Notes under the pieces: generated by a model
Told to the model about the DNA's origin: nothing
What the model saw: the letters and a program-made list of their open reading frames with translations, nothing else
Database searches by the model: none
Assembly: GCA_944389525.1 (NCBI GenBank)
Contig: CALXMR010000005.1
Coordinates: forward strand, 362-64,361
Length of the DNA: 64,000 nt
Source: an uncultured Alphaproteobacteria bacterium
Lineage (GTDB): Bacteria > Pseudomonadota > Alphaproteobacteria > Rs-D84
Direction: 5' to 3'
Made by a program: the position numbers and the translations under genes
Shown: piece after piece, positions 14,527 through 38,271 of the stretch
Numbering within the stretch: position 1 is the stretch's first letter
Layout of the letters: each line of letters starts with the position of its first letter

Positions 14527-14910
14527 ATGAGCAAATTATTAAAACAATTGGGTTTCGCAGGGCTGGCCATTGTGGCGGGTGCATCGATGCCGGCATTTGC
14601 GGCAGCGCCAGGTGGGGTGGCCACTGTGGGAAACAGCGGTCTGTGCGAACTGATTGGCCAGATGCAGGGTGTGTTTAAAATTCTGCGTACATTGGCGTTC
14701 GTTGGTGCGGCGTTTTTGATTGCGCAATGGGCGTGGGGGTACATCAAGGCTGGCGATGTCAAAATGGACGAGTTAAAGGACAAAGGTACTGCGTTGTTGG
14801 TTGGGTTCGTGCTGTTGTTCGGAATTGGATTTTTGTTACAGTTCTTGAGTTCTTCGGCCGGGTTAAGTACCATGGGGTGCGACAATTTAATAACAGGTTG
14901 GAATCAATAA
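14527..14910 (+). CDS. TrbC/VirB2-family type IV secretion pilin-like protein
   Basis: Long signal peptide. Mature part GLCELIGQMQGVFKILRTLAFVGAAFLIAQWAWGYI...FGIGFLLQFL parallels the VirB2 pattern (NICTFILGPFG...GIVAIGISWMFGRA...FGASFLGK) with two hydrophobic helices. Confidence 0.45.
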   Translation: MSKLLKQLGFAGLAIVAGASMPAFAAAPGGVATVGNSGLCELIGQMQGVFKILRTLAFVGAAFLIAQWAWGYIKAGDVKMDELKDKGTALLVGFVLLFGIGFLLQFLSSSAGLSTMGCDNLITGWNQ

Positions 14911-14939
14911 AAAAGGCGGCCGGGTTGGCCGCTTTTTTT
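14909..14939. terminator. Bidirectional terminator (A-run ggcggccgggttggccgc T-run)
   Basis: Hairpin flanked by A-run and T-run between convergent genes. Confidence 0.6.
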
Positions 14940-14973
14940 ATGGGTATAGTGCCCTGGGTGCGACCGGGGATTT

Positions 14974-15198
14974 TTATTTTTGTTCTTCGATATTGGCCAA
15001 TGAAAACAGTACCGATGAAATCAACAGTTGGTATGGGACATGCTGTTTGTCCGCCAGTTCTTTGATTCTTTCCAGAATTTGATGCGGAATGCGCATATTT
15101 ATAACACGATCTGATTTGTTAAATGCGCGATAGGCCGCATATTCTTTTAACAAAGTTTCCATATTCATTACGAATAATTGTTGCATTACATTTGGCAT
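14974..15198 (-). CDS. BrnA/CopG-like ribbon-helix-helix antitoxin-family protein (orphan, no cognate toxin found)
   Basis: KSDRVINMRIPHQILERIKELADKQHVPYQLLISSVLFSLA matches the COG3514/BrnA pattern (RVn-R-lp...YQtlIkxiLhxy). The ATG at 15198 is preferred over the TTG at 15204. Confidence 0.5.
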   Translation of the reverse strand: MPNVMQQLFVMNMETLLKEYAAYRAFNKSDRVINMRIPHQILERIKELADKQHVPYQLLISSVLFSLANIEEQK

Positions 15199-15235
15199 AC
15201 ACAAACCCCTATACTGTTGGCAATACCACCGTCTT

Positions 15236-15277
15236 TACAATGAACTATATCATTGTATTGATGTTTGTCAATACAAA
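15236..15277. promoter_or_regulatory. Two overlapping palindromes upstream of the antitoxin-like gene (tacaatgaactatatcattgta and ttgtattgatgtttgtcaatacaa), candidate operator
   Basis: Perfect inverted repeats 35-75 bp upstream of the minus-strand start. Confidence 0.3.
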
Positions 15278-15460
15278 TGTAATTATGCTTGTAGATACTG
15301 TTGTAATTACTGGTGTGGGGACGGGTGTATATTGGTATGTGTTGGGGTAATTGTTTTTACTTTTTTTATTTTGATGGCCGGGAAAACAGATGCCGGGTCT
15401 TGCATTTTTAATTTTATCCATATAGAATTGTGGATGTAGTTTTGGAAAGGATTTATTACG

Positions 15461-21465: not shown

Positions 21466-21495
21466 TTGACCCGATTCGCACAAATATGATATCAT
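21466..21495 (+). promoter_or_regulatory. Candidate sigma70 promoter (TTGACC, 18 nt spacer, TATCAT) for the tail-fibre-like gene cluster
   Basis: Near-consensus hexamers. This places the TSS downstream of the first ATG at 21486. Confidence 0.35.
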
Positions 21496-21518
21496 TTAGA
21501 CAAGTAGAGAGAATTAGC

Positions 21519-24110
21519 GTGAGAAAAAATCTGAAGATTTCAAGGTTGGCAATAGTTTGTGTCTTGTGCGCTGTTACGGCCTCGGGTGCATATGCGGCAT
21601 CGTCTGTGCGCAGCCTGGGGGGCAGCGGTACATATACTAGTGCGTCTAGTGCGGCATCCGCTGGTTCGGCTGGGGCGACAACGGCGGTACGCGGTGGTTC
21701 GTTGCGTGTGACGCCGTCTTCGGGTCAGTCTGGGTCCAGTACGACAATCAGTGCTGGCACAACAACCTCTGGGCGTGTGGCGACATCGCCGCGTTTGTCG
21801 ATTGGACAGTACTTGGGTGGCGCGACATCTATCAGTGGTGGGGGCAGTTCGTTGCGTCCGGGGACTGGTTCGGGTTCGTCTGGCGGTGGTTCTTCGTCTG
21901 GTGGCGGAATGGATCCGGATGTTGCCGGTGAAGTGTTGACGGCCATAGACGATATCCGGCGTGATGTTGACGCTTTGTTCAATGCGGATACGAACTTGCA
22001 GGATCAGGTTAGTGCAAAGCAAGATATGTTATATCCCGCCGCAGATGGGTTTATCATAATTGATGACAGTACGAACGAAATCTTTGTTGATGTTGATGCG
22101 TTGCAGGGTGCGTTGGAAACTGTTGCCGGCGAAGATGGACGCGAAGTTGAATTGGGTTCTAATGAAACGGATTTGTTGTGGCGCTATGTTGGTGATCCAG
22201 GATGGGAGACCTTGATTTCCAAGGCGGAAATTACCGGACCCCAGGGTGAAAAGGGTGAGCCGGGCGAGGCGGCTAATCTGGACGCATATTCCACGACCGA
22301 GCAGATGAATCAGGCGATTGGAAATGCAATCGCGGCATTGGCGGATGTTTATGCGACCAAGGCAGATGTTGATGCGTTAGAGCGCGAGGTCGCAGCCAAG
22401 GCAAACACACAATATGTAAATGATGAATTGGCAAAAAAAGCAAATGCAGCCGATGTTTATACCAAGACAGAAGTTGATGAAAAAGTTGCCGATATTGTTG
22501 CAGGCGATATGGACGAAGCGCTGGCGAACAAGGCAGATAAAACATATGTTGATGAACAATTGGCGACCAAGGCTGACAAGACAGAATTGGCGAACAAGGC
22601 AGACGCCAGTGCTGTTTCAGCATTAGAGACCGAAGTTGGTGAAATTAACGATTTGGCAAGTGATGCTGCATTGGCGGCGGCAAATGCAATCAGTGGTCTG
22701 GGTGCCAAAGAAAATATTTCAAATAAAACGCAAACTGTAACAAACAGTGCAACGGAATATCCGTCTGGTGCGGCGGTGACAGCCGCATTGGCGGATAAAG
22801 CGGATAAATCCGAATTGGCGAATTATGCCACGAATGATTCTGTTGATACAAAATTAGAAAATTACTATACGATTTCAGAAGTTGATGACAAGGTGGCAGA
22901 TGTTGTTGCCGGTGATATGGGCGAAGCGCTGATTGGTAAAGAAGATAAATCAAATAAAACACAGACAATAGATGCATCGTCTACGGCGGATCAGTATCCG
23001 TCGGCGGCGGCGGTTTATGGTGTTTTGGAACAAAAGGCAGATGCAACAACTGTTGAGCAGATTGAACAAGAAATTACAAATGTTTCAAATCAATATGAAA
23101 CAATAAATGAAACTGTAACAAATTTAGGCGACACAATTAATAACGAAGACACCGGTCTGAAAAAGCAAGTCGAAGATGCTGTAAATACTGCAAATGCTGC
23201 GCAACAGGCGGTCGCTGGCAAGCAAGATGCATTGGGATTCACCCCGGAAAATGTTGCGAACAAGAGTCAGACGGTTGTTGATGACGAAACAAAATATCCA
23301 TCGTCTGCGGCGGTTTATGGTGAATTAGAAACCAAGGCAAATGTATCTGATTTGGCGAATTATGCGACGACGGAAACGGTAAATCAGATTGAACAAAATG
23401 TTACCAATGTAACGGAACAGGTTACAAATTTAGGCGACACAATTAATAACGAAGACACCGGTCTGAAAAAGCAGGTTGAAGATGCTGTAAATACTGCAAA
23501 TGCCGCGCAACAGGCGGTCGCCGGCAAGCAAGATGCTTTGACCGCTGAACAAATGAATGCTGTGAATTCGGGCATTACCGCGGAAAAGGTTTCTGTATAT
23601 GACGGCTATGCCGATACTATCGCGGGCAAGCAAGACGCGTTGGGATATACCGCCGAAGATGTGGCAAACAAAACCGATGATATGGCGGTGGATGCTGGGT
23701 CCACGACCAAATATCCAACAGTTCACGCAGTCGAGGCATATGTCACCAACACTGTGGCCGAAGGGGTTGAAATTAATACAGATCAAATTGCGGCCGGTGC
23801 GGTTAAAACGGATCAGATTGGTGATGGTGCCGTGACGGAAGAAAAATTGTCTGATGAATTAAATGCCGAAATTGATGGCAAGGCAAACACTGCGGATTTG
23901 GGCGATTTGGCGAAAAAGGATCAAATTCGTGACGCCGATGTTGCGGACGATGCGGCAATTTCGAAATCTAAATTGGCGACTGATGTGCAAAACGCGTTGG
24001 ATAACGCGGCAAACGCAGTGGCTGCGCCGGCGGGCGAAAAACCAACAAACAGCGTACTGGGCACGGATGGCGAGGGCAATCCAGTGTGGTATGAAATCGT
24101 AACGGATTAA
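21519..24110 (+). CDS. Secreted phage-tail-fibre-like repeat protein 1 (tail-fibre-type repeats plus a short collagen-like GxY run)
   Basis: ORF 21486..24110. Probable GTG start at 21519 with GAGAGA RBS, giving signal peptide MRKNLKISRLAIVCVLCAVTASGAYA. S/G/T-rich low-complexity region. Repeats KADKTYVDEQLATKADKTELANKAD and YPSxAAV. GPQGEKGEPGE collagen-like run. C-term DGEGNPVWYEIVTD. Confidence 0.7.
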   Translation: MRKNLKISRLAIVCVLCAVTASGAYAASSVRSLGGSGTYTSASSAASAGSAGATTAVRGGSLRVTPSSGQSGSSTTISAGTTTSGRVATSPRLSIGQYLGGATSISGGGSSLRPGTGSGSSGGGSSSGGGMDPDVAGEVLTAIDDIRRDVDALFNADTNLQDQVSAKQDMLYPAADGFIIIDDSTNEIFVDVDALQGALETVAGEDGREVELGSNETDLLWRYVGDPGWETLISKAEITGPQGEKGEPGEAANLDAYSTTEQMNQAIGNAIAALADVYATKADVDALEREVAAKANTQYVNDELAKKANAADVYTKTEVDEKVADIVAGDMDEALANKADKTYVDEQLATKADKTELANKADASAVSALETEVGEINDLASDAALAAANAISGLGAKENISNKTQTVTNSATEYPSGAAVTAALADKADKSELANYATNDSVDTKLENYYTISEVDDKVADVVAGDMGEALIGKEDKSNKTQTIDASSTADQYPSAAAVYGVLEQKADATTVEQIEQEITNVSNQYETINETVTNLGDTINNEDTGLKKQVEDAVNTANAAQQAVAGKQDALGFTPENVANKSQTVVDDETKYPSSAAVYGELETKANVSDLANYATTETVNQIEQNVTNVTEQVTNLGDTINNEDTGLKKQVEDAVNTANAAQQAVAGKQDALTAEQMNAVNSGITAEKVSVYDGYADTIAGKQDALGYTAEDVANKTDDMAVDAGSTTKYPTVHAVEAYVTNTVAEGVEINTDQIAAGAVKTDQIGDGAVTEEKLSDELNAEIDGKANTADLGDLAKKDQIRDADVADDAAISKSKLATDVQNALDNAANAVAAPAGEKPTNSVLGTDGEGNPVWYEIVTD

Positions 24111-24122
24111 AGGAAAGAAAGA

Positions 24123-25937
24123 ATGAAAAAATCAAATATAGCATTTTCTGGGGTTATGGCGGCGATATTGTTCAGTGCCGGCGCGGCTAATGCGACCACA
24201 ACGCAAATTGCCAGCAAACAGTACGTTGACACCCGTGAAACGGCCATTTTGGAAAATGTCAGCAATACATATGAAACCAAAGAAAATGTCCAAAATCTGA
24301 CTGAACAGGTTACAAATTTGGGTGATACGATTAATAATGCCGAAACAGGATTGACAACAACGGTAAAAAAAATAACCCAGGTTGTTGGTGATGATACATC
24401 TGGATTGGTCAAGGATGTTACGGATTTGGGAACAACGGTTGATGGCTTGACAGAAACAGTTGGTAATTTAGATACGGAACTGGATTCTAAATTGGACAGC
24501 GCGACCGCAGATGGCAAGTATGAGGTTTTAACCAACAAGGCGACTGCAATTAATGCAGAAAATCAAACTTCTGGAACATCATATCCATCGGTCGGGGCAA
24601 TCGTTCAATGGACAAATAAAAAGATCGCCGATTTGTCGAATACTGGATTACCAGTTAACCCGGGTAATATCGAAGATGGAACAATTTCTGGCAGTAAATT
24701 GGAAAATGGTGCAATTACCACGGATAAAATCGCAAATGATGCCGTAACATCGGATAAAATTGCGGACGATGCGGTTGGGTCTGAACATATCAAGACCGGC
24801 GCGGTTGGATCCGATGAAATTGCCGATGGCGCGGTTGGTAATGCAGATTTGGCGGCAGATTCCGTAACAACAGATAAAATCAAAGATGGCACGATTTCAT
24901 CGGCTGATTTGGATACGGCATTAAATGCCGAAATAGATGGCAAAGAAGATAAATCAAACAAGGCCACCACCATTGATTCAACCAACCAGGCATCCACAGA
25001 CGCATATCCGTCTGTCAAGGCGGTGTACGATTGGACCACGACCCAGATTGCAAATGTTGAATTTGATCCGTCTGAATTGGCACCGGGGTCAATTGATGGT
25101 GATGCAATCCAAGATGGCAGTATTTCTGGTGATAAAATCACCGATGGCACAATTACATCAGACCAGATTGCCGATGGTACGGTTGGTACCGGTGATATCG
25201 CCGATGGTGCAATCACGGGCGATAAATTGGATGAAACATTGGCGGGGCAAATTGCCGATATCGATGGGAAACAAGACATTGCAATGGGTGTCGGTCACGA
25301 AAATCATATCGTGACAACTGATGCGTCTGGTAATATTACATCCGCTGCGACAATTGGTCAGGACAAGGTTACAGGTTTGACCACAGCGTTGGCGGACAAG
25401 GCGTCAATTGACGATATTCCAACAACTGTTGCGGAATTAACCGATGCATCAAATTATGCAACAACGGGTGCGTTGACGTCTGGATTGGCGGGCAAAGAAG
25501 ATACATCTAATAAGACCAAATTAATCAATGATGGCAATAAATCGTCTGAAACACTGTTCCCGACAATTGGCGCAATCACCACGTGGACAGATCAACAGAT
25601 TCAACAGTTATCGACCGAGGGTATTCCCGTTAATCCAGATAATATCGGTCCAAATGCGATTACAACTGATAAAATTGCAAATGGTGCGGTGACAACGCCG
25701 AAAATTGCAGATAAAGCCGTGACCGAAGACAAGTTGAGTGATGAACTGAACGCGGAAATCGATGGCAAGGCAAATGCCGCAGATGTTTATACCAAATTGG
25801 AAACAGATGGCAAAATTGTTGAATTGGCGGTACCGCAGCCAGACGCAGATTGTCAGGCGGAATCAGGGCTGTGCGTATTATCGGTTACAACCGATGGTGA
25901 TTTGGCATGGGTAAATGTAACCGCACCGGCAGAATAA
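24123..25937 (+). CDS. Secreted phage-tail-fibre-like repeat protein 2
   Basis: Signal peptide then IASKQYVD motif. Tandem 8-11 residue repeats (IADGTVGTGDIADGAITGDKL...). YPSVKAVYDW and YPSVGAIVQW motifs. C-term TTDGDLAWVNVT. Confidence 0.7.
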   Translation: MKKSNIAFSGVMAAILFSAGAANATTTQIASKQYVDTRETAILENVSNTYETKENVQNLTEQVTNLGDTINNAETGLTTTVKKITQVVGDDTSGLVKDVTDLGTTVDGLTETVGNLDTELDSKLDSATADGKYEVLTNKATAINAENQTSGTSYPSVGAIVQWTNKKIADLSNTGLPVNPGNIEDGTISGSKLENGAITTDKIANDAVTSDKIADDAVGSEHIKTGAVGSDEIADGAVGNADLAADSVTTDKIKDGTISSADLDTALNAEIDGKEDKSNKATTIDSTNQASTDAYPSVKAVYDWTTTQIANVEFDPSELAPGSIDGDAIQDGSISGDKITDGTITSDQIADGTVGTGDIADGAITGDKLDETLAGQIADIDGKQDIAMGVGHENHIVTTDASGNITSAATIGQDKVTGLTTALADKASIDDIPTTVAELTDASNYATTGALTSGLAGKEDTSNKTKLINDGNKSSETLFPTIGAITTWTDQQIQQLSTEGIPVNPDNIGPNAITTDKIANGAVTTPKIADKAVTEDKLSDELNAEIDGKANAADVYTKLETDGKIVELAVPQPDADCQAESGLCVLSVTTDGDLAWVNVTAPAE

Positions 25938-26001
25938 ATAAAATTAAATAAAAAACAGATTTGAAAAACAAAAAAACAAAATAGAAAGAAAGGAAAGAAA
26001 A

Positions 26002-27405
26002 ATGAAAAAATTAACAGCAGGTATATTTGCAACATTATTGGCAGTCGTATCAACCGGCGCCGCAAATGCAAGAATTGCGTCACAGGCATATGTTGATGAA
26101 AAAGATGCAGAACGTGTTGCGATTCAACAAGAAACAAATAATGGGGTCTTAACAACGAGTGCAACCGGTGCAGTTCAGGTTTCTGCCACCATCCCACAAT
26201 CGAGTGTTGCTGGATTGGATACGACATTAGCGGGCAAGGTTGATGATGCTGATTTGGCAAATTATGCAACCAAAACGGCACTGACAGATGGTTTGGCAAC
26301 AAAGGCATCGCAATCAGATGTAACAGCGTTGACGGGTCGTGTTACAACAGCAGAAGATGAGATCGATGCATTACAGGCACCAACAGCGCAGGTTGCTGAG
26401 GGGGTAACTGGACCAGTTTCTGGTGGTACAGTATATGACGCGATTGAGGGGGTTACAGGTAATGTAGGTAGTGTAACAGGTCGTGTAGATACATTAGAAG
26501 GTGAAATGGATACGGCGCAATCTGACATCTCAGAATTACAGGCAGGTAAGCAAGATAAAAATATGGGGGCAGGGGCAGCAAACCATATCGTAACAACGGA
26601 TGGCAGTGGTAATATTACATCCAGTGCGACAATTACCCAGGGGCAGGTTGCAGGTTTAAATACAGCATTAGATGCCAAGGCAGATAAATCTGCATTAGAT
26701 GGTAAAGTAGACGCAAATAAAGCAATTAGTGCGGGAACAGGTACAAAAATTACATATGATGCAAAAGGGTTGGTAACGGGCAGCGCCAGTTTAACTGCGT
26801 CGGATATCCCGGCATTGACAACAGATAAGATTACTGGTTTAGATACAGAATTGGATTCAAAGGCATCACAAACGGATTTAACCGCATTAACAGGGCGTGT
26901 TACAACCGCAGAAGGGGATATTGACGCATTACAGGCACCAACAGCGCAGGTTGCTGAGGGGGTAACTGGACCGGTTTCTGGTCAAACAGTGTTTAATGCA
27001 ATCCAGGGCGTTACAGGTGATGTTACCGGTGTAACAGGCCGTGTAGATACATTAGAAGATGAAATGGATACGGCGCAATCTGACATCTCAGGATTAAAGA
27101 CAGGTAAGCAGGATAAATTAACAGGTCCAGTTGGTAGTGCAACCCAGCCAGTGTATGTGAATGCAGAAGGTAATGTAGTTGCAGGAACCGCATATGGTTC
27201 ATTGGCGACCAAAAATCAGGTTGCAAATGCGGATGTTGCAGATAATGCCGCAATCGCGCAAAGCAAGATTGCAAACTTGGTAACTGATTTGGCAGCAAAA
27301 ATTACGGCGCCAGCAACATCTGAAACCGGTGAAACTGGTACATGGGTTTTGACATATGACGGAACCAGTTTCCAATGGGAAGATATTACCCGTGCTGGTG
27401 AATAA
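26002..27405 (+). CDS. Secreted phage-tail-fibre-like repeat protein 3
   Basis: Signal peptide then IASQAYVD. Internal duplication of a ~75 aa block. C-term LTYDGTSFQWEDIT. Confidence 0.7.
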   Translation: MKKLTAGIFATLLAVVSTGAANARIASQAYVDEKDAERVAIQQETNNGVLTTSATGAVQVSATIPQSSVAGLDTTLAGKVDDADLANYATKTALTDGLATKASQSDVTALTGRVTTAEDEIDALQAPTAQVAEGVTGPVSGGTVYDAIEGVTGNVGSVTGRVDTLEGEMDTAQSDISELQAGKQDKNMGAGAANHIVTTDGSGNITSSATITQGQVAGLNTALDAKADKSALDGKVDANKAISAGTGTKITYDAKGLVTGSASLTASDIPALTTDKITGLDTELDSKASQTDLTALTGRVTTAEGDIDALQAPTAQVAEGVTGPVSGQTVFNAIQGVTGDVTGVTGRVDTLEDEMDTAQSDISGLKTGKQDKLTGPVGSATQPVYVNAEGNVVAGTAYGSLATKNQVANADVADNAAIAQSKIANLVTDLAAKITAPATSETGETGTWVLTYDGTSFQWEDITRAGE

Positions 27406-27516
27406 TATGTAATGAATAATGTGTGCGGTGTGATGTCGCGCCGCACACAGGTAAAAAAAACAGATTGCGATAAACGAACAGTGGAACGAAACAGTTTTTT
27501 TAGGTAGAATACGGAT

Positions 27517-29043
27517 ATGATAAAGTCAAAGGGCATTTTCGCAGTTTCTTTTATAGCTATGATGGTGGTGGGGGGCGCATATGCAAATATTGCATCCCAG
27601 GGATACGTTGATCAACAGGTTGACGCAAAGCAAAATGCCAGCACCGCCGTAAAGGTTGCCACCGCCGGGACCGCGGTGGGGGATACGACGCATCCGGTCT
27701 ATGTTAATGCCAGTGGCGTTGCAACAAAAATAGACAAGGTTGCCGCCGCAGCAAGCGCGGATACTGCAACCAGTGCAACCAAGGCAACGCAAGATGGCAA
27801 TGGGGCAAATATTGCCAATACATATGCCAAAAAGACCGAATTGCCAACGGTGAATAATGCCACGCTGACCATTCAGAAAAATGGCGCAACTGTTGATACA
27901 TTTACTGCGAATGCGTCTGCGAACAAGACAATTAATATCACTGTGCCGACACAAACCAGTCAATTACAAAACAATAGTGGTTATATTACATCGGCGGATC
28001 TGCCAGATGAATATCAGTTAAAGGCGGCAACGGCGTCTGAATTGGGCGGTGTGAAATCCGGTGGTGATATTACTGTGGCGACCAGTGGCGCCGTGACCGT
28101 GAACAGTGCCACCAAGGCGACCCAGGACGCGTCCGGCAATGTGATTACAACCACATATGCGACAAAATCTGAATTAACATCTGGGTTGGCTGGGAAACAG
28201 GCGACTTTGTCGGGTGCGCAATTGAATGCGGTGAATTCTGGGATTACGTCGACCAAGGTATCAACCTATGACGGATACAATGCAAAAATAACCGCCGCGC
28301 AGACCGCCGCGCAGACCGCCGCCGATGCCGCCGATGCCGCACAAACAGCGGCAGAAACAGCACAAAGTACCGCGACAGCTGCACAGAATGCTGCGAATGC
28401 CAAGGTTGCCACCGCACAGGGTTCTGGTAATGCAAACAAGGCGGTGATTACGAATTCGTCTGGGAATATTACAACCGGTACGATTTCGTCGGGTATGATT
28501 GCAGATGATGCGGTAACCGCGGCGAAAATAGCAACCGGTGCAGTTGGAACCGATGGGTTGGCGTCTGGTGCCGTGACATCCGCGAAAATTGCCGATAGCA
28601 CAATTGTAAATGCAGATATTTCCGCCAGTGCCGCGATTGCTGCGTCAAAGATTTCGGGATTGGCGACGGTTGCGACATCGGGGTCTTATGATGATTTAAC
28701 GGACAAGCCGACAATTCCAGCGGCGATAACTGTTGATTCTGCGTTAAGTTCAACTAGTACAAATCCAGTTCAGAACAAGGTTATAAACACCGCATTGGCA
28801 GGTAAGTTAAGCACAACAGGGACAGCAGCCAAGGCAACAGCAGATGCAAGTGGTAATAATATTGCAAACACTTATGCGACCAAGGCGCAATTAACGGCAT
28901 TGGACAGTACATCATCTGGTTCAGGTGCGGTGGTTACAAATGTTTCCCAGACAGACGGCAAGGTGTCTGTAACCAAGGGGAATGTTCAAATCCCAGTGGG
29001 CAGTGCAACTGCAACATCTTATGCCACAATTTGGGTTCAATAA
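27517..29043 (+). CDS. Secreted phage-tail-fibre-like repeat protein 4
   Basis: Signal peptide then IASQGYVD. SGSYDDLTDKPTIP motif typical of tail fibres. LSGAQLNAVNSGITSTKVSTYDGY block shared with protein 1. Confidence 0.7.
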   Translation: MIKSKGIFAVSFIAMMVVGGAYANIASQGYVDQQVDAKQNASTAVKVATAGTAVGDTTHPVYVNASGVATKIDKVAAAASADTATSATKATQDGNGANIANTYAKKTELPTVNNATLTIQKNGATVDTFTANASANKTINITVPTQTSQLQNNSGYITSADLPDEYQLKAATASELGGVKSGGDITVATSGAVTVNSATKATQDASGNVITTTYATKSELTSGLAGKQATLSGAQLNAVNSGITSTKVSTYDGYNAKITAAQTAAQTAADAADAAQTAAETAQSTATAAQNAANAKVATAQGSGNANKAVITNSSGNITTGTISSGMIADDAVTAAKIATGAVGTDGLASGAVTSAKIADSTIVNADISASAAIAASKISGLATVATSGSYDDLTDKPTIPAAITVDSALSSTSTNPVQNKVINTALAGKLSTTGTAAKATADASGNNIANTYATKAQLTALDSTSSGSGAVVTNVSQTDGKVSVTKGNVQIPVGSATATSYATIWVQ

Positions 29044-29086
29044 AGGGTGCAGATGTTGTTACAGGGCAGGAGAGAGAACGAATTTC

Positions 29087-29109
29087 GCGGGCCTTTGCCC
29101 GCGTTTTTG
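29087..29109 (+). terminator. Rho-independent terminator after the fibre cluster (gcgggcctttgcccgc plus T-run)
   Basis: GC hairpin followed by TTTTTG. Confidence 0.5.
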
Positions 29110-29410
29110 TTTCTTGTCATTCTGGTGTGTGGGGGCAGGGCGACCGTGGCGATCCAGTGAATGCGATATGTGTCGCGTTGCGACTACATTATTTACTGGA
29201 TTGCTTCGCTATGCTCGCAATGACAAGGGGAGGGCTCGCAATGACAAGAGAGTGTGGTCGTTATTCGTTTCTTGTCATCGCGAGGGAACGCAGTGACCGT
29301 GGCGATCCAGTGAATGCGATATGTGTCGCGTTGCGACTACATTATTTACTGGATTGCTTCGCTGCGCTCGCAATGACAAGGGGGGGCACGCAATGACAAG
29401 GGGGCAGAGG
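29110..29410. repeat. Palindromic repeat element cluster
   Basis: Two ~88-bp direct repeats (29142-29229 and 29295-29383, ~97% identical) with internal palindromes. Additional ctcgcaatgacaag/cttgtcat motifs. Spurious ORFs read VIASAAKQSSK or LAMTRGG. Confidence 0.7.
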
Positions 29411-30063: not shown

Positions 30064-30420
30064 ATGATGAAACGACAAAATAATTCTAATCGGGGTGCGC
30101 GTGTCGCCAGTAAAGTGCAAACACTGGTGGCGGAAATTTTGCGCGATAATTATGGCGAAGATAAGTTAATTTCTGGGGTGTCGTTGGTTGGGGCGGTGGC
30201 ACATGGGGGATTGCAATTCGTGCGGTTGTTCTATTATTCCCGTAATGATGATATTGATGCAGTACAGCGCCGGTTAAATGATATTACAAAAACGGTGCGG
30301 TATGAACTGGGGGCGCGAATGAATCAAAAATATGTTCCAGATATCCGATTCGAATATGATGACACTTTGGACAGGGCAGAGAGAATAGATGAACTGTTAA
30401 ACAAAATGGATGAAAAATGA
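30064..30420 (+). CDS. rbfA: Ribosome-binding factor A
   Basis: 118 aa. RVASKVQTLVAEIL KH-like N-terminus typical of RbfA. Confidence 0.7.
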   Translation: MMKRQNNSNRGARVASKVQTLVAEILRDNYGEDKLISGVSLVGAVAHGGLQFVRLFYYSRNDDIDAVQRRLNDITKTVRYELGARMNQKYVPDIRFEYDDTLDRAERIDELLNKMDEK

Positions 30421-30872
30421 AAGCAGGATTAAAACAAATTTCAATCGTTTCAACAGATGTGTTAAAAGATTGCTTTGCAATCGTTGATCAGGTGCATCCG
30501 TATGATGCAATCGCGCTGTTCCATAAAATGCGCGACGATGTTGAACGCCGGGGACATGTGCTGTTCGTGTTTAATGGTGCACATAACACCATGGGATTTA
30601 TCAAAGGACAAATAAATAAACCAAACTTTAAATCAATTACACCGTATGGGTACCAGGCGCAGATTGACAGTCTGTACGTAGATAAAAAATATCAGAATTC
30701 TGGAATTGGGCGGATGCTGGTCCAGGCGTATGAAAATTACTGTAAAAGCCAGAATGTTGCAGAAATTATATTACGGGCACTGCCGACAGAACAGGCAAAG
30801 AAGTTCTGTGAGAAGAATGGGTATAAACTTGTCAATAATACTGCAGTGATGCGTAAGTATTTGGTGCGATAG
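30417..30872 (+). CDS. GNAT-family N-acetyltransferase
   Basis: Acetyl-CoA binding motif [10 protein letters not shown]. Overlaps the rbfA stop. Confidence 0.7.
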
Positions 30873-30951
30873 TTCTGTCGCACCCTTTTTAAAAATTGGT
30901 TGCAAATCTAAATATACTGGTGTATCATTGCCGCAGACTATTGGGGTTTTT

Positions 30952-32751
30952 ATGAACCAAAAGAATATTAGAAACTTTGCAATTGTTGCCCATATTGATC
31001 ATGGTAAATCAACACTGTCAGACAGGTTGATTGAATATACTGGCGGACTGCAATCGCGCGAAATGAAGGCCCAGGTTCTGGATTCTATGGATATCGAACG
31101 CGAACGCGGAATTACGATAAAGGCCCAGACAGTGCGATTGAACTATACCGCGCGCGATGGGCAAGTATATCAGCTGAATTTAATGGATACGCCGGGACAT
31201 GTTGATTTCTCGTACGAGGTGTCGCGATCGCTGGCCGCGTGCGAGGGGGCGTTAATTCTGGTCGATGCAACCCAAGGGGTCCAGGCGCAAACACTGGCGA
31301 ATGCATATCTGGCGTTGGATAATGATTTAGAAATGCTGCCTGTGCTGAATAAAATTGATTTGCCGTCCAGTGATGTGGACGCCGCACGGGAACAGATCGC
31401 AGATGTTATTGGACTGGATGCGTCAAATGCAATATGCGTGTCGGGAAAAACAGGGGCGGGGGTGCCAGAACTGCTGGAAGAAATTGTGCATCGGTTGCCC
31501 GCACCAGATGGTGATGAAAATGCGCCGGCGCGCGCGCTGTTGGTGGATTCGTGGTATGATTCATACCTGGGGGTTGTGATATTGGTGCGCGTGGTAGATG
31601 GACAATTGACCCGTGGTCAGAAAATAAAATTTATGGCAACAGGGGCCGAATATACGGTTGAAAAAATCGGCTATTTTACGCCAAAGATGGTGGATGTGGA
31701 TGTTCTGGGTACTGGTGAAATTGGGTTTATTATAACTGGTATGAAAACAATTCATGATTGCAAGGTTGGTGATACAATTGTGGACAGTCGCACTGGGGGT
31801 GGGTGTGAACCGTTGCCGGGATTCAAGCCATCTGTGCCAGTGGTGTTTTCATCATTCTTTCCGATGGCCGCTGATGATTATCCAGCGTTGCGGGACGGGG
31901 CGGAAAAATTGGCACTGAATGATGCATCGTTCGTTTTTACAACAGAGAAGTCGTCTGCGCTGGGGTTTGGTTTGCGGTGTGGATTCTTGGGGCTGTTGCA
32001 CATGGAAATCATCAGTGAACGGTTGCGCCGTGAATTTAATCTGAGTTTGATAAGCACTGTGCCCAGCGTGCTGTACAAGGTGTATTTGCGCGATGGCACG
32101 GAATTGGATTTGGAAAATCCGGCCGATATGCCAGATGTTACGAAAATCGCGTCAATCGAAGAACCGTGGGTGCGCGCAACAATCATGATGCCTGATAAAT
32201 ATATGGGTGGTATTATGTCGCTGTGTTCGGCGCGGCGCGGAATACAAGAAAATATTTCTTATGTTGGTAATCGGGCGGTCTTGGTGTATCAGTTACCACT
32301 GGCGGAAATTGTGTTCGATTTTTACGACAGAATAAAGTCACTGTCATCGGGGTATGCATCGTTTGACTATGTGGTCCAAGGGTATCGGCCGTCTGATTTG
32401 GTCAAAGTGTCGATATTGGTTAATGATGAAAATGTTGAACCGCTGTCGTTCATATGTCATCGCAGCAATGCGGAAAAACGCGGACGGCAAATTGTCGAAA
32501 AATTAAAGGATCTGATTCCGCGACATCAATTTAAAATACCATTACAGGCGGCAATCGGCGGTAAAATTATCGCGCGTGAAACAATTGCCGCATATCGCAA
32601 GGATGTAACCGCAAAATGCTATGGCGGGGACATCACACGCAAAAGAAAGTTGTTGGAGAAGCAGAAGGAGGGAAAAAAACGAATGCGGACATTTGGAAAT
32701 GTTGAAATTCCGCAATCCGCATTTATAAATGCACTGAAGGTGTCGGATTAG
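30952..32751 (+). CDS. lepA: Translation elongation factor 4 (LepA)
   Basis: [23 protein letters not shown]-domain and the LepA-specific C-terminal domain. Confidence 0.92.
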
Positions 32752-33287
32752 AAATAAACACAATAAAAACAGGAGTTGCCAATGTTTGAAGTTATACAAT
32801 ATTTATTAAATAACAATATCAATTCAATTCGCAGTGATTGCGCAGAATATAAAATACTGCAACAAAAGTATAAATCTTTAAAGGCGCAAAAGAAAGCCGC
32901 GTATGCAAAATTGAAAGAATTTGGTGCATGTGTGTCGAATTACAAAACGTGTCAAGAATATGATTATGTTATAGATAATGGTTGTCCACCCGTCATAGAA
33001 AATGTAGTTGTTGAAGCTTACACGGAAACATTACATGCATGCGATAATTGGTCTGAAACGCCATGTCTTAACGAGAGTTGCCCGCATTTTGCTGAAAACA
33101 AAAATTATATCCGCATATTACAGGATTATAAAACAGTGTGTGATATGAAAAAGCGCTTTTGGTGTGAAAAGTTTAACCGTACTAAATAAAAAACAGATGG
33201 CGTGTTTTCTTGTTCGTTATGTTTTGAAAACGCCATATTTGTCAATTTTGGCGGAGTTTATAAATGCACTGAAAGTATCTGATTAAA
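32718..33287. repeat. Imperfect ~35-bp direct repeat of the lepA 3' terminus flanking small-protein gene A
   Basis: Copies at 32718-32752 and 33252-33287. tttataaatgcactgaa is an exact 17-mer. The second copy still encodes FINALKVSD-stop and differs only at synonymous sites. Confidence 0.6.
32782..33189 (+). CDS. Small basic Cys-motif protein, paralog A of novel family
   Basis: ATG 32782 with AGGAG RBS. Motifs KY(L/F), EYKxL, C-x-C-x3-5-C(P)x(F/Y) ... FW. Confidence 0.55.
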   Translation: MFEVIQYLLNNNINSIRSDCAEYKILQQKYKSLKAQKKAAYAKLKEFGACVSNYKTCQEYDYVIDNGCPPVIENVVVEAYTETLHACDNWSETPCLNESCPHFAENKNYIRILQDYKTVCDMKKRFWCEKFNRTK

Positions 33288-33297
33288 GGAAAATAGC

Positions 33298-33729
33298 ATG
33301 CTGAAAGAAATAATAAATTATGTGTTTTCAAAATCGCCATTGCGAATTTGGGTTGATTATGAAGACTATTTAATTATAAAAACAAAGTGCACAGAACTTG
33401 AGGAACGTATGCGTGATGCACGGCGTTTGCTGGTGCGGCCATATGTCACAAAATCAGAAATTAAAGAACCTATTGGTTGTATAAAACGACGGGTTGTTTT
33501 TCCCGTGCAGTCAGCAGAAAATATTGTTTGTGAAAGAAAATCATCTGTGATGAAGGAATATTATTGTGTGAATTTCAATGAAAGTGCACAGAGATTTTCT
33601 GATTCGTGCAATATTAAAAGCTGCCCATTGTATCAAAATTATAAAACGTATGCTGATTTAAAACGAAAGTACGAGTTCTTGTTGAATGAAAAAAAATCAT
33701 TTTGGCAAAACAAAATTTGCTTGAAATAA
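33298..33729 (+). CDS. Small basic Cys-motif protein, paralog B
   Basis: Same size and motif pattern (INYVF, SCNIKSCPLY, KSFW). Own RBS. Confidence 0.55.
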   Translation: MLKEIINYVFSKSPLRIWVDYEDYLIIKTKCTELEERMRDARRLLVRPYVTKSEIKEPIGCIKRRVVFPVQSAENIVCERKSSVMKEYYCVNFNESAQRFSDSCNIKSCPLYQNYKTYADLKRKYEFLLNEKKSFWQNKICLK

Positions 33730-33750
33730 AAATAGAAAAGAGGATTTTTT

Positions 33751-34167
33751 ATGGGTTTGTTTAAATATTTGTATACAACATCGTGGAATAAAATTCATCA
33801 AGATATCCAGGAATATAAAAGGTTGCGTCAGACAGAAAAAACGGCAGACAAGCTGATGTGGGAAAAATATTCACAAATAAAAATTGATTTGGGGCCACAA
33901 GAATATGATATCACCCAAACAACCAATGGCTGTATCGTGCTGTGCGAGCAATTGTTGCCGGACTTTGGTCGTGATACAGTGCCAATGCTTTTACTGCGCA
34001 GATCGGTGTGTCCATATTTTAAATATAAAGAGTTTTGTAATCGGTCAGATTGTGAATTCAGAACACAGCAAAAACAGTATGTTGAAGCGGTTGTTCGGTA
34101 TGACTTGATAAAAAGTGAATGCAGAAATTTTTGGCGCAAGAAATTTATCGCGTCAAATACAAAGTAA
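33751..34167 (+). CDS. Small basic Cys-motif protein, paralog C
   Basis: Motifs FKYLY, QEYKRL, SVCPYF...CNRSDCEF, RNFW. RBS AGAGGA. Confidence 0.55.
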   Translation: MGLFKYLYTTSWNKIHQDIQEYKRLRQTEKTADKLMWEKYSQIKIDLGPQEYDITQTTNGCIVLCEQLLPDFGRDTVPMLLLRRSVCPYFKYKEFCNRSDCEFRTQQKQYVEAVVRYDLIKSECRNFWRKKFIASNTK

Positions 34168-34186
34168 GATAGTACAGGAAAATAAA

Positions 34187-34582
34187 ATGTTTCTAGGAAA
34201 ATTAAAATATGCTATTCGTGCCCCAATTGTGTGTATAAAGAAAAATTGGCATGAATACAAATTTTTAAGCAAAGCAATTGATCGGGCTCAAAAGGCGTGT
34301 GACCAGGCTAGAGCAAATATAACAACGGTCAGTTTTGATGATGATGGATTGTCTTGTATTGTAAAACATAGCACATTTGTACGCTTTTCTGAAAGACAGA
34401 AAAAGCCATTTTATTGTGATTATGAAACGCATTGTCTGATGTGGCGTGAAGGCTGTACCGTAAAAACATGTCAATATTTTAATAGACATATTACGTACAA
34501 TAAAGCTAAATCTAGATTAGATATGCTGATGACACGAAAAAATAATTTTTGGTCACGAAAATTATCTGGAAAAATTAGATAA
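34187..34582 (+). CDS. Small basic Cys-motif protein, paralog D
   Basis: Start at MFLGKLKY (ATG 34187, AGGAAA RBS), not the ORF-track start at 34115. Motifs HEYKFL, CQYF, NNFW. Confidence 0.5.
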   Translation: MFLGKLKYAIRAPIVCIKKNWHEYKFLSKAIDRAQKACDQARANITTVSFDDDGLSCIVKHSTFVRFSERQKKPFYCDYETHCLMWREGCTVKTCQYFNRHITYNKAKSRLDMLMTRKNNFWSRKLSGKIR

Positions 34583-34595
34583 ATGGAGGTGCATA

Positions 34596-35015
34596 ATGTT
34601 TATTGATTGGGTTAAATATTTTTTAAAAACAACCAGGGCAGAAAGAATTTCAGATAGAAAAAAATACGATAATTTGAACACGGTATATAAAATAAAGGCT
34701 CAACAGTGCATCTTGGCATATAATGATTTGTTGTCATTTAATGGCGAAATGTCTTGTCGTTGTACAAAGATGAGTTTAAAGACAACTATTGACAATAATC
34801 CTGGGGGTAATAATACCGCAACAGGTCTTGTAAAAAGTATCTTTGTGGAATGCCCCAAGTTTTTTTATTATACGGAATGCGATAATGAAGACTGTTCGTT
34901 TTATGAAAAAAACAAAAATTTTGTTCGTTTAAATAATGAATTGGTGGAAGTGCGCTTGAAGCGGGATGCATTTTGGCAAATCACAGTTGATAAAAGGTTG
35001 GAAAAAATATACTAG
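34596..35015 (+). CDS. Small basic Cys-motif protein, paralog E
   Basis: GGAGG RBS. Motifs VKYFL, ECPKFFYYTECDNEDCSFY, DAFW. Confidence 0.55.
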   Translation: MFIDWVKYFLKTTRAERISDRKKYDNLNTVYKIKAQQCILAYNDLLSFNGEMSCRCTKMSLKTTIDNNPGGNNTATGLVKSIFVECPKFFYYTECDNEDCSFYEKNKNFVRLNNELVEVRLKRDAFWQITVDKRLEKIY

Positions 35016-36166: not shown

Positions 36167-36400
36167 ATGACAACTTTTGAAAAAGTAAGAAAAATAGTCG
36201 CCGACAAATTGGGTGTACAGGAATCGAAAATCGAAGAAACATCTGCATTTGTTAACGATCTGGGCGCAGATTCTTTGGATGTTGTTGAATTCGTTATGGA
36301 AGTGGAAAAAGAATTCGATATCACTATCCCAGATGAAGAAGCAGCCAAACTGACAACAGTTGGTGATGCGGTAAAGTATATCGAAGCGCATAAAAAATAA
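36167..36400 (+). CDS. acpP: Acyl carrier protein
   Basis: 77 aa. DSLD phosphopantetheine attachment motif ([13 protein letters not shown]). Confidence 0.92.
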
Positions 36401-36427
36401 TTCTACAAGGGTTTATAGACTCTGGGG

Positions 36428-36468
36428 GTTCCGTTGTGATATCTTGTTATTGCAACGGAACTTTTTTT
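36428..36468 (+). terminator. Rho-independent terminator after acpP
   Basis: gttccgttg ... caacggaac hairpin followed by TTTTTTT. Confidence 0.5.
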
Positions 36469-36534: not shown

Positions 36535-37788
36535 ATGAAAAGAGTTGTTATCACTGGTATGGGTATTGTGTCACCGGTTGGAACGGGGATTGAATACGCG
36601 TGGAAAAATATTGTCAATGGTGTTTCTGGGGTTCGTAAAATCGATACATTTGATGCGTCTGATTTATCGTCACAGATTGCGGGGTTGCCGATTATTGGAA
36701 CAGATGCCGGACAATACAATCCTGATGCGGTGGTTGACGCGCGCGAACAGCGTAAAATGGACAAGTGCATTGTATACGGCATGGTCGCCGCGGACGAGGC
36801 TATTCGTGATGCTGGATTAATTGACTATGATGGTGACAAAAGTCGCATGGGGGTATCAATTGGTGCCGGTATTGGTGGATTGAATACAATATATGACAAC
36901 TGTGTTGAACTGTATGCGAATGGTCCGCGTCATATCAGTCCATTCTTTATACCAAAGGTTATTATTAATATGACCGCCGGTCATGTTTCCATCAAGTATG
37001 GATTAAAGGGGCCGAACTTGTCGGTGGTGACGGCGTGCGCGTCGGCGGCGCATTCAATTGGTGAAGCGGTTCGTTTAATTCAACATGGTGATGCTGATGT
37101 CATGGTTGCCGGTGGTGCCGAAGGTGCGGTTGGTAAAATCGGTGTTGCTGGGTTCTGTGCGATGAAGGCGTTAAGTACGCGCAATGATGCGCCGACCAAA
37201 GCATCGCGCCCCTGGGACAAGGAACGCGATGGTTTTGTCATGGCCGAAGGTGCGGGTATTCTGGTTCTGGAAGAATACGAACATGCGGTTGCCCGTGGCG
37301 CAAAGATTTATGCCGAAGTGGCGGGATACGGTCTGTCGGGTGATGCGTATCATATTACTGCGCCGGCCCCTGGGGGCGAAGGCGGTCTGCGCGCGATGCA
37401 GGCGGCGTTAAAAGATGCCGGTATGCAGCCGGGTGATGTTGACTATATCAATGCACACGGTACATCAACAGGTTTGGGCGACCTGGGCGAATTAAGCGCG
37501 GTGCAAACATTATTTGCTGGCACAAATGTTTCGATGTCGTCAACAAAATCTATGACAGGGCATCTGTTGGGTGCCGCCGGCGGGGTAGAGGCGATATTCT
37601 GTGTCATGGCGATTCGTGATGGTATCGTTCCGCCGACAATTAATTTGGAAAATCCAGAAGATGCAGTTGGTGATTTCGACCTGGTGCCGAATGTTGCAAA
37701 ACAGCGGCCGGTTAATGTCGCGTTAAGCAATTCTTTTGGATTTGGTGGTACAAATGCCAGTTTGATTATCAAACGATTTGAAAAATAA
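36535..37788 (+). CDS. fabF: 3-oxoacyl-ACP synthase II
   Basis: KAS II: Cys-His-His catalytic residues. Conserved acpP-fabF linkage. 417 aa. Confidence 0.9.
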   Translation: MKRVVITGMGIVSPVGTGIEYAWKNIVNGVSGVRKIDTFDASDLSSQIAGLPIIGTDAGQYNPDAVVDAREQRKMDKCIVYGMVAADEAIRDAGLIDYDGDKSRMGVSIGAGIGGLNTIYDNCVELYANGPRHISPFFIPKVIINMTAGHVSIKYGLKGPNLSVVTACASAAHSIGEAVRLIQHGDADVMVAGGAEGAVGKIGVAGFCAMKALSTRNDAPTKASRPWDKERDGFVMAEGAGILVLEEYEHAVARGAKIYAEVAGYGLSGDAYHITAPAPGGEGGLRAMQAALKDAGMQPGDVDYINAHGTSTGLGDLGELSAVQTLFAGTNVSMSSTKSMTGHLLGAAGGVEAIFCVMAIRDGIVPPTINLENPEDAVGDFDLVPNVAKQRPVNVALSNSFGFGGTNASLIIKRFEK

Positions 37789-37814
37789 AAAACGGGGCAT
37801 CGCCCCGTTTTTTC
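37787..37814 (+). terminator. Rho-independent terminator after fabF (aacggggcatcgccccgtt plus T-run)
   Basis: Perfect GC hairpin followed by TTTTTT. Confidence 0.65.
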
Positions 37815-37857
37815 AAAGGCAAAGCGCAGAGTGCAATTGTTATCCGCGGTTTTCTCT

Positions 37858-37958
37858 CTCTTGTCACCCCGTGGTCAAGCCCACCGGGTGACAAGATGAA
37901 AAGTGTCATCCTGGGGTCAAGCCCCAGGATGACAAGAAAGACAGTCACGGGGTGACAG
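37858..37958. repeat. Three adjacent palindromes sharing tgacaag arms and tcaagc loops
   Basis: cttgtcaccccgtggtcaagcccaccgggtgacaag, gtcatcctggggtcaagccccaggatgacaag, gtcacggggtgac. Motifs related to the 29.1-29.4 kb repeat family. Confidence 0.6.
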
Positions 37959-38059
37959 ATTTATGAGTTGGGTGTAACTGGTGCTGTTGTTACAATAATA
38001 TTTTTGTTGATTTTTTGTCCCGGGGGTTGCATAATCGGCCTGCTTTGGTTGTGAATGTC

Positions 38060-38135
<76 letters not shown>

Positions 38136-38271
38136 CTGTTTGATATCTTTTTGGTAAATCAAGGGACATCATGTCCCGTTTATTTTTTCGCGGAAATTTT
38201 TATTCATATTTTTATTTTACATGTCATAAATATATTGCAATAATCTGTTGTAACGCAAAAAGGGTTGTTTT

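Follow-up and report, generated by a model that had tools for sequence, protein, structure and literature searches.

Diverged paralogs of an undescribed small four-cysteine protein family form a variable array between lepA and an apparently inactive integrase homologue in uncultured gut Alphaproteobacteria

Five consecutive small genes, here called paralogs A–E, lie on the + strand between lepA and an integrase homologue (int*) in a 64,000-nt stretch of DNA from an uncultured Alphaproteobacteria bacterium (contig CALXMR010000005.1; the whole stretch is referred to below as the window). A–E are diverged paralogs and belong to a family of basic proteins of about 120–145 aa that has not been described before. 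All members found come from one clade of uncultured gut and rumen Alphaproteobacteria. Arrays of close relatives differ by collinear gain, loss and replacement of whole cassettes. The descriptive account as a whole, which covers the family, the array, the locus and int*, is put forward with very high confidence.

The protein family and its predicted fold

All five + strand open reading frames (ORFs) proposed by the first-pass annotation are present at their positions (Table 1), and for A and D the family start consensus MFxxxKY favours the starts chosen there, not those of the longer ORFs that begin with TTG and GTG. The products are 131–143 aa in length with isoelectric points (pI) of 8.0–9.8, and by inspection they appear to be cytoplasmic. 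Pairwise identity among them is 15–29 %, E being the most divergent of the five. Nonetheless collinear in a MAFFT alignment, they share M1, Y7, Y23, C87, C95, C100, F126 and W127 as invariant positions (numbering of A). The shared motifs described in the first reading of the DNA are real. Scored against a profile of 136 other family members, from which the window proteins were excluded, A–E reach 75–107 bits, and the best of 10,000 composition-matched shuffles reaches 13.7 bits; the motifs are thus no artefact of K-rich, low-complexity sequence. The count of three conserved cysteines given with them has to be corrected to four, the additional one being located about 36 residues upstream, in a G-C-I motif at which the β-hairpin described below begins.

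The AT-richness noted earlier is likewise borne out. A–E have a GC content of 0.32–0.37 and a GC content at third codon positions (GC3) of 0.24–0.38, with low GC at every codon position, compared with 0.40–0.49 and 0.41–0.48, respectively, for rbfA, the acetyltransferase gene, lepA, int*, fabF and the AMP-ligase gene. The acpP gene is also low (GC 0.376, GC3 0.31). A Shine–Dalgarno-like sequence precedes each of A–E, as expected if each gene has its own ribosome-binding site, and the gaps between array genes are 13–21 nt, apart from the 108 nt that separate A from B.

A profile search of 1.84 billion cluster representatives returned 223 family proteins at E<=1e-3 and 58 at E<=1e-10; the 223 are representatives of clusters formed at 50 % identity. 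Nearly all of the hits are 120–148 aa long and match end to end, and in public sources the proteins are nameless or annotated as ‘hypothetical protein’. The family is uniformly basic, 97 % of its members having a pI above 8; the net charge averages +7.6, to which the C-terminal helix contributes most (+4.9). Its description as an unrecognised family holds, as nothing above noise was found in Pfam-A (2025), NCBIfam (2026), PHROGs, PADLOC or a PDB sequence profile search. Likewise, none of 141 family members has a Pfam match above noise, and the family models have no PDB fold match beyond generic helical hairpins. Literature searches on the locus, on dead integrases and on lepA as an integration site found no description of the locus.

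One candidate relative was considered and rejected. By eye, C, Y, N, Y, Y and FW residues of the family coincide with the zinc subdomain of T4/RB69 gp32, and hmmsearch against the PDB gave E=0.16 for RB69 gp32. Among gp32 proteins the Tyr and Asn positions in question are not conserved, and hhalign of the family against a 10-phage gp32 alignment gave a probability of 14 %, so this lead was abandoned; gp32 is also missing from the fold hits.

The AlphaFold2 model of A, built on a 141-sequence alignment, has a predicted local distance difference test score (pLDDT) of 93.3 and contains a helix at residues 2–10, a helix at 13–46, strands at 51–65 and 72–86, a Cys-rich loop at 87–102 and a helix at 103–134. 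The model of E, the most divergent paralog, has the same topology (pLDDT 90.6). The predicted fold consists of a short N-terminal helix and two long antiparallel helices that form a stalk, with a long β-hairpin at its far end. Cys1 and Cys2 are located at the two ends of the hairpin and Cys3 and Cys4 in the loop ahead of the last helix, where together they presumably form a putative Zn(Cys)4 clamp at the hairpin base. All four are invariant in the 141 sequences and are retained in 90–100 % of 145 independent metagenomic survey domains. The conserved non-Cys positions are heptad-spaced on both long helices, at 23, 26, 30, 33, 37, 40 and 44 of the first and at 106, 109, 112, 116, 119, 123, 126/127 and 130/131 of the second; this a/d spacing identifies them as the core of the antiparallel stalk. 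The β-hairpin (residues 52–86) is hypervariable, with less than 0.8 bits per column, indels and a length of 10–36 residues. In a lineage with a single copy, the proteins are nearly identical over their first 42 and last 35 residues, and the middle is unrecognisable.

Several variant forms of the protein were encountered. Fused two-domain forms of 244–257 aa are represented by P0028, P0075, P0111 and P0145; locus L009 (7–741) also carries a variant form. Short forms of 71–102 aa (P0083, P0091 and P0105) lack the hairpin and keep both helices and the last two Cys, so the hairpin seems dispensable for the scaffold. A divergent subfamily of 108–181 aa is located in the lepA–int* interval of other loci (L039, 495–1037; L089, 3869–4695; L090, 1706–2533; L094, 5481–5984). 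It keeps the N-terminal (D/E)YK and the Cys pattern but has no FW motif, and the family hidden Markov model (HMM) does not detect it at E<1e-3; the 223 representatives thus understate the breadth of the family. Additionally, P0011 (126 aa, from a 1.8-kb ENA contig) is a chimera whose N-terminal half (MNTFDKYLFKKDNLLRRRIEIDNSLYEQLVKL...) is unrelated and whose C-terminal half is that of paralog A; it may be a genuine recombinant or an artefact of assembly.

The locus, its integrase homologue and turnover of the array

The gene order rbfA–lepA–(family genes)–int*–acpP–fabF is found in about 100 loci from gut and rumen metagenomes. In all eight loci looked up from the family side, the family genes are directly upstream of int*, with lepA upstream and acpP–fabF downstream wherever the contig reaches. 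A survey from the int* side added 80 further metagenomic loci with identical order throughout, from the human gut and from other sources that are apparently rumen, judging by contig names. Two related metagenome-assembled genomes also have the gene order of the window. The window itself is core chromosome, as it carries genes for a GyrB-type topoisomerase subunit, uvrC, dnaN and tolB as well as a ribosomal-protein leader. A scan of the window located terminator-like sites before lepA and after acpP and none between them, so the array and int* are probably co-transcribed with lepA.

The int* product matches PF13356 (Arm-DNA-bind_3) at 9e-7, PF22022 (Phage_int_M) at 1e-5 (26.2 bits, just under the Pfam curated cutoff of 27 bits), phrog_1 at 2e-29 and lambda Int at E=1e-6 over residues 52–248, and is 24–27 % identical to phage integrases. 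Its scaffold (arm-binding, core-binding and catalytic-domain) is homologous to that of the tyrosine recombinase/phage integrase superfamily. No match of int* to PF00589, the family of the catalytic domain, was found, and its match to the NCBIfam tyrosine-recombinase subfamily PRK00283 has an E value of only 0.094. When int* from eight loci was aligned with the lambda, epsilon15 and FBPa19 integrases, all eight had P or H in place of R212, D in place of H308 and Y, N or H in place of R311, and the segment carrying H333 and Y342 was missing from each. The survey copies agree: 64 of 78 could be placed by motif search, and all of these read MDDV/I[Y/H/N]KF instead of HxxR (14 were unmatched). The length of int* is steady in the survey, at 331–338 aa, and its ratio of nonsynonymous to synonymous substitution rates (dN/dS, or ω) is 0.06–0.08, near the level of housekeeping genes. 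Judged from these substitutions, which affect every catalytic residue that could be aligned, int* is catalytically dead yet under strong purifying selection, and the role for which it is retained would presumably be DNA binding. A precedent is TnsF, a tyrosine recombinase that has lost its activity and now serves to bind DNA sequence-specifically (PMC10293859).

The first-pass annotation had taken the neighbouring integrase as a sign of a mobile cassette, a step that is not supported: int* is by its sequence dead, holds a fixed chromosomal position in about 100 loci and has no copy among the viral contigs of IMG/VR. Likewise, a tblastn search of 50,697 phage records with paralog C gave no match.

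In the 63 loci that span the whole interval, the distance from lepA to int* ranges from 13 nt to 3.7 kb, with 0–10 family copies. Eight loci have no copy, about 20 have one, about 16 have two, 10 have three or four, and 9 have between 6 and 10; these counts are approximate, and the subfamily without the FW motif escapes the HMM. The window, with five copies, is within this range. The zero-copy loci are scattered over the int* tree, and copy number varies even among loci whose int* proteins are <=12 % apart. The kind of change seen between close relatives is evident when cassettes are labelled by identity, which gives the strings abcdefghi (L040), bjklghi (L097), bjkghi (L073), abdehi (L042) and bci (L050). 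Paralogs inside one array are always old, with a median identity of 18–27 % and a maximum of 38 %.

Rates of evolution were estimated by the pairwise Nei–Gojobori method for whole genes and for N-helix, hairpin and C-terminal partitions, with many of the comparisons synonymously saturated. Overall, ω of the array genes is 0.05–0.5, and this purifying selection argues that the genes are functional. In the unsaturated comparison of L003 with L008, three paralogs have ω of 0.05–0.20 and a synonymous divergence (dS) close to that of the flanks. Between L001 and L002, dS is 0.33 for lepA and 0.45 for fabF, and array positions 2–4 have a dS of 1.2–1.4 with 49–56 % aa identity. Between L032 and L033, dS rises from 0.14 in int* to 0.69 in the small gene and 1.67 in its hairpin segment. 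Some alleles predate their flanks. In the single-copy lineage, ω is 0.04–0.07 for the N-helix and 0.11–0.69 for the hairpin. In L001 and L002 the orthologs of window gene B, assigned by position, are only 42–43 % identical and those of C 29–33 %, and for D no clear ortholog was found in related genomes. Mosaicism and allele exchange are what these data show; positive selection is not demonstrated by them.

Gene A has a distinct history. The last 29 nt of lepA are repeated between A and B with 90 % identity, and the alignment of this remnant has 26 matches in 32 positions, compared with a null maximum of 21. The remnant reads FINALKVSD-stop and departs from the live copy at four positions, each time by a synonymous or stop-to-stop change, which indicates that both lepA 3′ copies diverged while coding. 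Gene A and the spacer behind it thus have the hallmark of a 535-nt unit that arrived by Campbell-type insertion and carried a foreign lepA 3′ end. Among the three genomes that carry it (the window, L001 and L002), gene A is 90–96 % identical with a dS of 0.11–0.20, compared with 0.33–0.98 for lepA, and DNA identity breaks off precisely at the B start codon. Of the remnant, L001 has a decaying copy and L002 a partly deleted one. On these sequence comparisons gene A is the most recently inserted cassette. Remnants of the lepA 3′ end were also considered as a general mark of cassette insertion, an idea that was dropped: none was found in other lineages, and Campbell-type insertion is not claimed as the general mechanism of array growth. 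A terminator or attC-like hairpin after A was rejected as well, the folding z-score of the candidate (33197–33236) being a nonsignificant −1.3.

Table 1. Features of the lepA–fabF region, in window coordinates. The first Cys listed for each paralog is the one at which its β-hairpin begins
Feature	Coordinates	Strand	Remarks
Terminator-like site and promoter-like hexamers	30863–30884 (terminator-like); 30889–30928 (hexamers)		5′ of lepA; consensus matches only
lepA (EF4)	30952..32751	+	Upstream fixed anchor; Pfam LepA_C and GTP_EFTU on orthologs
Live lepA 3′ end	32722..32750	+	Codes ...FINALKVSD; copy 1 of the direct repeat flanking gene A
Paralog A, 135 aa	32782..33189	+	C50, C87, C95, C100
Paralog A hairpin	32932–33039	+	Residues 51–86
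A–B spacer	33190..33297	+	Weak hairpin 33197–33236; lepA 3′ remnant 33257–33285
Paralog B, 143 aa	33298..33729	+	C61, C90, C104, C109
Paralog C, 138 aa	33751..34167	+	C61, C87, C96, C101
Paralog D, 131 aa	34187..34582	+	C57, C77, C90, C95, plus extra C83
Paralog E, 139 aa	34596..35015	+	C56, C86, C95, C100; hairpin strands 57–65, 77–85
int*, 332 aa	35034..36032	+	P4/lambda-type tyrosine-recombinase homologue; downstream fixed anchor of the array
acpP	36167..36400	+	Terminator-like hairpin 36424–36465 after the gene; PP-binding Pfam on orthologs
fabF	36535–37788		ketoacyl-synt Pfam on orthologs

Other parts of the neighbourhood may be variable too. The GNAT acetyltransferase gene in the rbfA–lepA gap (30417–30872) is 55 % identical to its counterparts in L001 and L002, compared with 93–98 % for lepA and fabF, and is absent from some related loci (L003 and L029); a second segment of this operon seems to be variable or to have been replaced. 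Further upstream, at 21486–29043 on the + strand, are four ORFs of 874, 604, 467 and 508 aa with no credible Pfam match. The 508-aa ORF has an N-terminal signal-like segment and repeated ‘ATKATQDASGN..ANTYA’ motifs and is fibre/adhesin-like; this may be a further variable surface-protein region, as relatives have differently sized unannotated ORFs there. Overlapping, spurious-looking ORFs at 28982–29400 contain a twice-repeated peptide, ‘...SDRGDPVNAICVALRLHYLLDCFA(M/A)LAMTRGG’, which suggests a repeated extragenic element, similar to repetitive extragenic palindromic (REP) DNA, between the fibre-like gene and a DedA/VTT gene. L002 has another repeat, of about 180 nt, in three tandem copies downstream of fabF (14564–15444).

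The only tRNA gene of the window, tRNA-Pro(CGG) at 38059–38135, is located between fabF and the AMP-ligase gene. At 2 kb from int* it is non-adjacent, and so provides no obvious att site. Strong terminator-like hairpins surround it (37787–38177), those at 37787–37813 and 37904–37934 being bidirectional. Additionally, small GIY-YIG ORFs of 79–102 aa are found a few kb from the locus in L006 (14668–14907) and in L025 and L027 (188–496), and may be homing-endonuclease-like insertions.

Possible functions of the array

The first-pass annotation had suggested an immunity or anti-defence cassette. Part of this idea stands, as a fast-turnover accessory array is compatible with an immunity-like role; the part that relied on an integrase-based mobile cassette is not supported. 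Anti-defence is unlikely for a vertically held chromosomal locus. Immunity is itself a hypothesis, given an operon without toxin genes and uniformly basic proteins that match no immunity family. The reading favoured here, offered tentatively as possible and not as probable, is that the proteins form a repertoire of specific binders in genetic conflict, with a role in immunity or neutralisation. The locus would then derive from the cargo end of an ancient integrative element whose target was the lepA 3′ end. The small proteins would be interchangeable specific binders, each showing a variable surface on a stable, zinc-stapled scaffold, and together they would make up a conflict-type repertoire that confers immunity to, or neutralises, variable foreign proteins or nucleic acids. 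In this scheme int* would persist as a DNA-binding protein with a separate function of its own.

Several observations count against a binder repertoire. In no comparison, whole-gene or partitioned, does ω exceed 1, so the variability of the hairpin could be a mere lack of constraint. The pattern of within-species polymorphism is mixed, being hairpin-enriched in A and not in B or C. No match to an immunity, defence or recombination directionality factor (RDF) family was found in Pfam, PHROGs, NCBIfam or PADLOC, and the lepA–acpP operon contains no toxin, secretion or phage genes. Known orphan-immunity islands are unlike this locus, which is chromosomal, vertically inherited and inside a housekeeping transcription unit. 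The charge of the family also fits nucleic-acid binding better than it fits typical immunity proteins, for which a uniformly basic composition is unusual.

The last point leads to the main rival, in which the small proteins are nucleic-acid-binding partners of int*, derived from an xis/RDF-like accessory gene of the ancestral element. They would contact DNA or RNA by way of the basic stalk. The pair would constitute a regulatory or architectural module, controlling, for example, the lepA–acpP region or resident or incoming mobile elements. In both the eight look-ups and the 80-locus survey, the family was seen nowhere but immediately upstream of int*, on the same strand and with the close spacing of xis–int operons. 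Small, basic proteins with their charge concentrated on the C-terminal helix, and with probable zinc binding, would suit such a role, as would the strong purifying selection on the DNA-binding domains of int* after the apparent loss of catalysis, for which TnsF offers the precedent (PMC10293859). Additionally, helix 1 in the single-copy lineage is constrained like lepA or int*. However, 8 of the 63 loci have int* but no family gene and are scattered over the int* tree, and the range of copy number, the replacement of cassettes and the extreme divergence would not be expected if the small proteins paired stoichiometrically with so conserved a protein. Family-wide conservation falls on core positions and outlines no obvious shared surface, and no homology to excisionase, RDF or helix-turn-helix (HTH) families was found. 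Partnership with int* is accordingly regarded as rather unlikely.

A similarly doubtful possibility would give int* and the small proteins complementary parts in a new chromosomal recognition or immunity repertoire. The inactive integrase would serve as a DNA-bound platform or regulator, and the exchangeable zinc-stapled proteins would supply specificity through their hypervariable hairpins, directed at, for example, incoming phages and mobile elements or injected toxins. It is kept in consideration by the exclusive association with int* seen from the family side, the turnover of cassettes, the old alleles and a scaffold without known relatives.

That the array might be decaying or selfish leftover cargo, drifting without benefit to the host, is improbable. 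Low GC3, very fast divergence, repeated complete loss (the eight scattered zero-copy loci) and the failure of ω to exceed 1 anywhere are all compatible with drift. Set against them are ORFs that are intact across over 200 representatives and 145 survey domains and preserve length, the four Cys and the core heptads, ω of 0.05–0.3 where dS is unsaturated, confidently predicted folds, and tight packing with a Shine–Dalgarno-like sequence for each gene.

An active mobile cassette system, whether integron-like or an immunity island on a mobile element, in which the adjacent integrase would capture and shuffle cassettes, is largely refuted and very improbable. The location of A between 29-nt direct repeats of the lepA 3′ end, 535 nt apart, the likeness of a co-directional low-GC array to rAID-1 clusters, and the turnover between strains speak for it. 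Yet int* is without Arg-I, His-II, Arg-II and the His-III/Tyr segment in 8/8 loci, with the motif survey in agreement, and sits at the end of the array far from the apparently newest cassette; the other gaps are 13–21 nt with no attC-like repeats, the lepA remnant is confined to the lineage of the window, and both the synteny of about 100 loci and the absence from viral contigs point away from mobility. Equally remote is a prefoldin- or Skp-like ‘jellyfish’ oligomer, a chaperone or holdase of paralogous subunits with hairpins forming a barrel and stalks as tentacles: the order helix, β-hairpin, helix with both termini at the stalk tip is that of prefoldin beta, and the best fold matches include prefoldin, Skp and V-ATPase subunit D, but conservation is lowest in the hairpin, whereas an oligomerisation element should be conserved, and 0–10 copies are ill-suited to a fixed hetero-oligomer.

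Comparison with known systems

The closest resemblance in architecture is to the rAID-1 or polyimmunity loci of gut Bacteroidales, where co-directional small low-GC genes are located beside a tyrosine-recombinase-family gene and where gene number and content vary between strains (Ross et al., 10.1101/471110). The rAID-1 definition of at least two co-directional genes with GC <=41 % describes the window, which has five. The recombinase of rAID-1 loci is 5′ of the genes, XerD-like and presumed active (10.1101/471110), whereas int* is 3′ of the array, of P4/lambda type with an arm-binding domain, apparently dead and barely similar to PRK00283. Many immunity families and repetitive intergenic sequences characterize rAID-1 loci; here a single novel family with 13–21-nt gaps occupies a fixed site in a housekeeping operon. 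No known immunity family was matched by any of the 141 members, and no cognate toxin adjoins the array in the lepA–acpP operon. AttC-like intergenic repeats of the rAID-1 or integron kind are absent as well, the sole repeat being the lepA 3′ remnant.

RDFs are small and basic, and a small basic protein encoded immediately upstream of, and co-directionally with, a lambda/P4-type integrase homologue is the arrangement of xis–int modules as well as of the window. The likeness is one of position. The family has no similarity in sequence or fold to HTH or winged-helix RDFs, nor does it belong to the AlpA or Xis families; it combines a Cys4 site with a coiled coil, is present in 0–10 copies and not one, and has a partner that is apparently not competent for recombination.

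Integrons share with the window promoterless-looking, co-directional small cassettes beside a tyrosine-recombinase homologue, and one insertion signature is present here. In the window, however, there are no attC-like repeats, the cassettes belong to a single family, and the recombinase homologue is co-directional and distal to the newest cassette. A competent IntI by attI, with new cassettes entering beside it, was not found: cassette A, by all appearances the newest, is lepA-proximal. Integrons with inactive integrases exist (PMC5559693, PMC3510236), but int* is conserved and is no sporadic pseudogene.

As to int* itself, the nearest parallel is TnsF of Tn6022-like Tn7 transposons, a DNA-binding target selector in which catalysis is also lost and the protein is kept for DNA recognition (PMC10293859), as the constraint on the DNA-binding domains of int* may likewise reflect. 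TnsF is of a zinc-finger-plus-XerH-like make-up, whereas int* is of the P4/lambda arm-binding type and has no Tn7 genes near it. For the small proteins, prefoldin beta, Skp and V-ATPase subunit D have the same order of secondary structure and are the best fold matches, with scores at the level of generic helical hairpins that fall short of a significant fold match, and none of them has a Cys4 site. The conservation expected for prefoldin is reversed in the family, as it is the oligomerising hairpin that should be conserved and the hairpin is variable here.

Since the locus lacks the defining features of rAID-1 clusters, xis–int modules and integrons, it is not filed under any of them; both the protein family and the type of locus are without known relatives. 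If the functional reading is true, the family would be a new bacterial scaffold for binding diversity, a zinc-clamped β-hairpin on a two-helix stalk, and int* would be a clear case of a tyrosine integrase without catalysis that is held by purifying selection across a clade. The locus would then be a compact, hypervariable chromosomal site that reports the conflicts of uncultured gut Alphaproteobacteria with phages or neighbours. Whatever the function, a family of about 130 aa with a confident structure prediction and hundreds of natural variants suits structural work and binder engineering, and the locus may be usable as a strain-typing marker in gut and rumen metagenomes.

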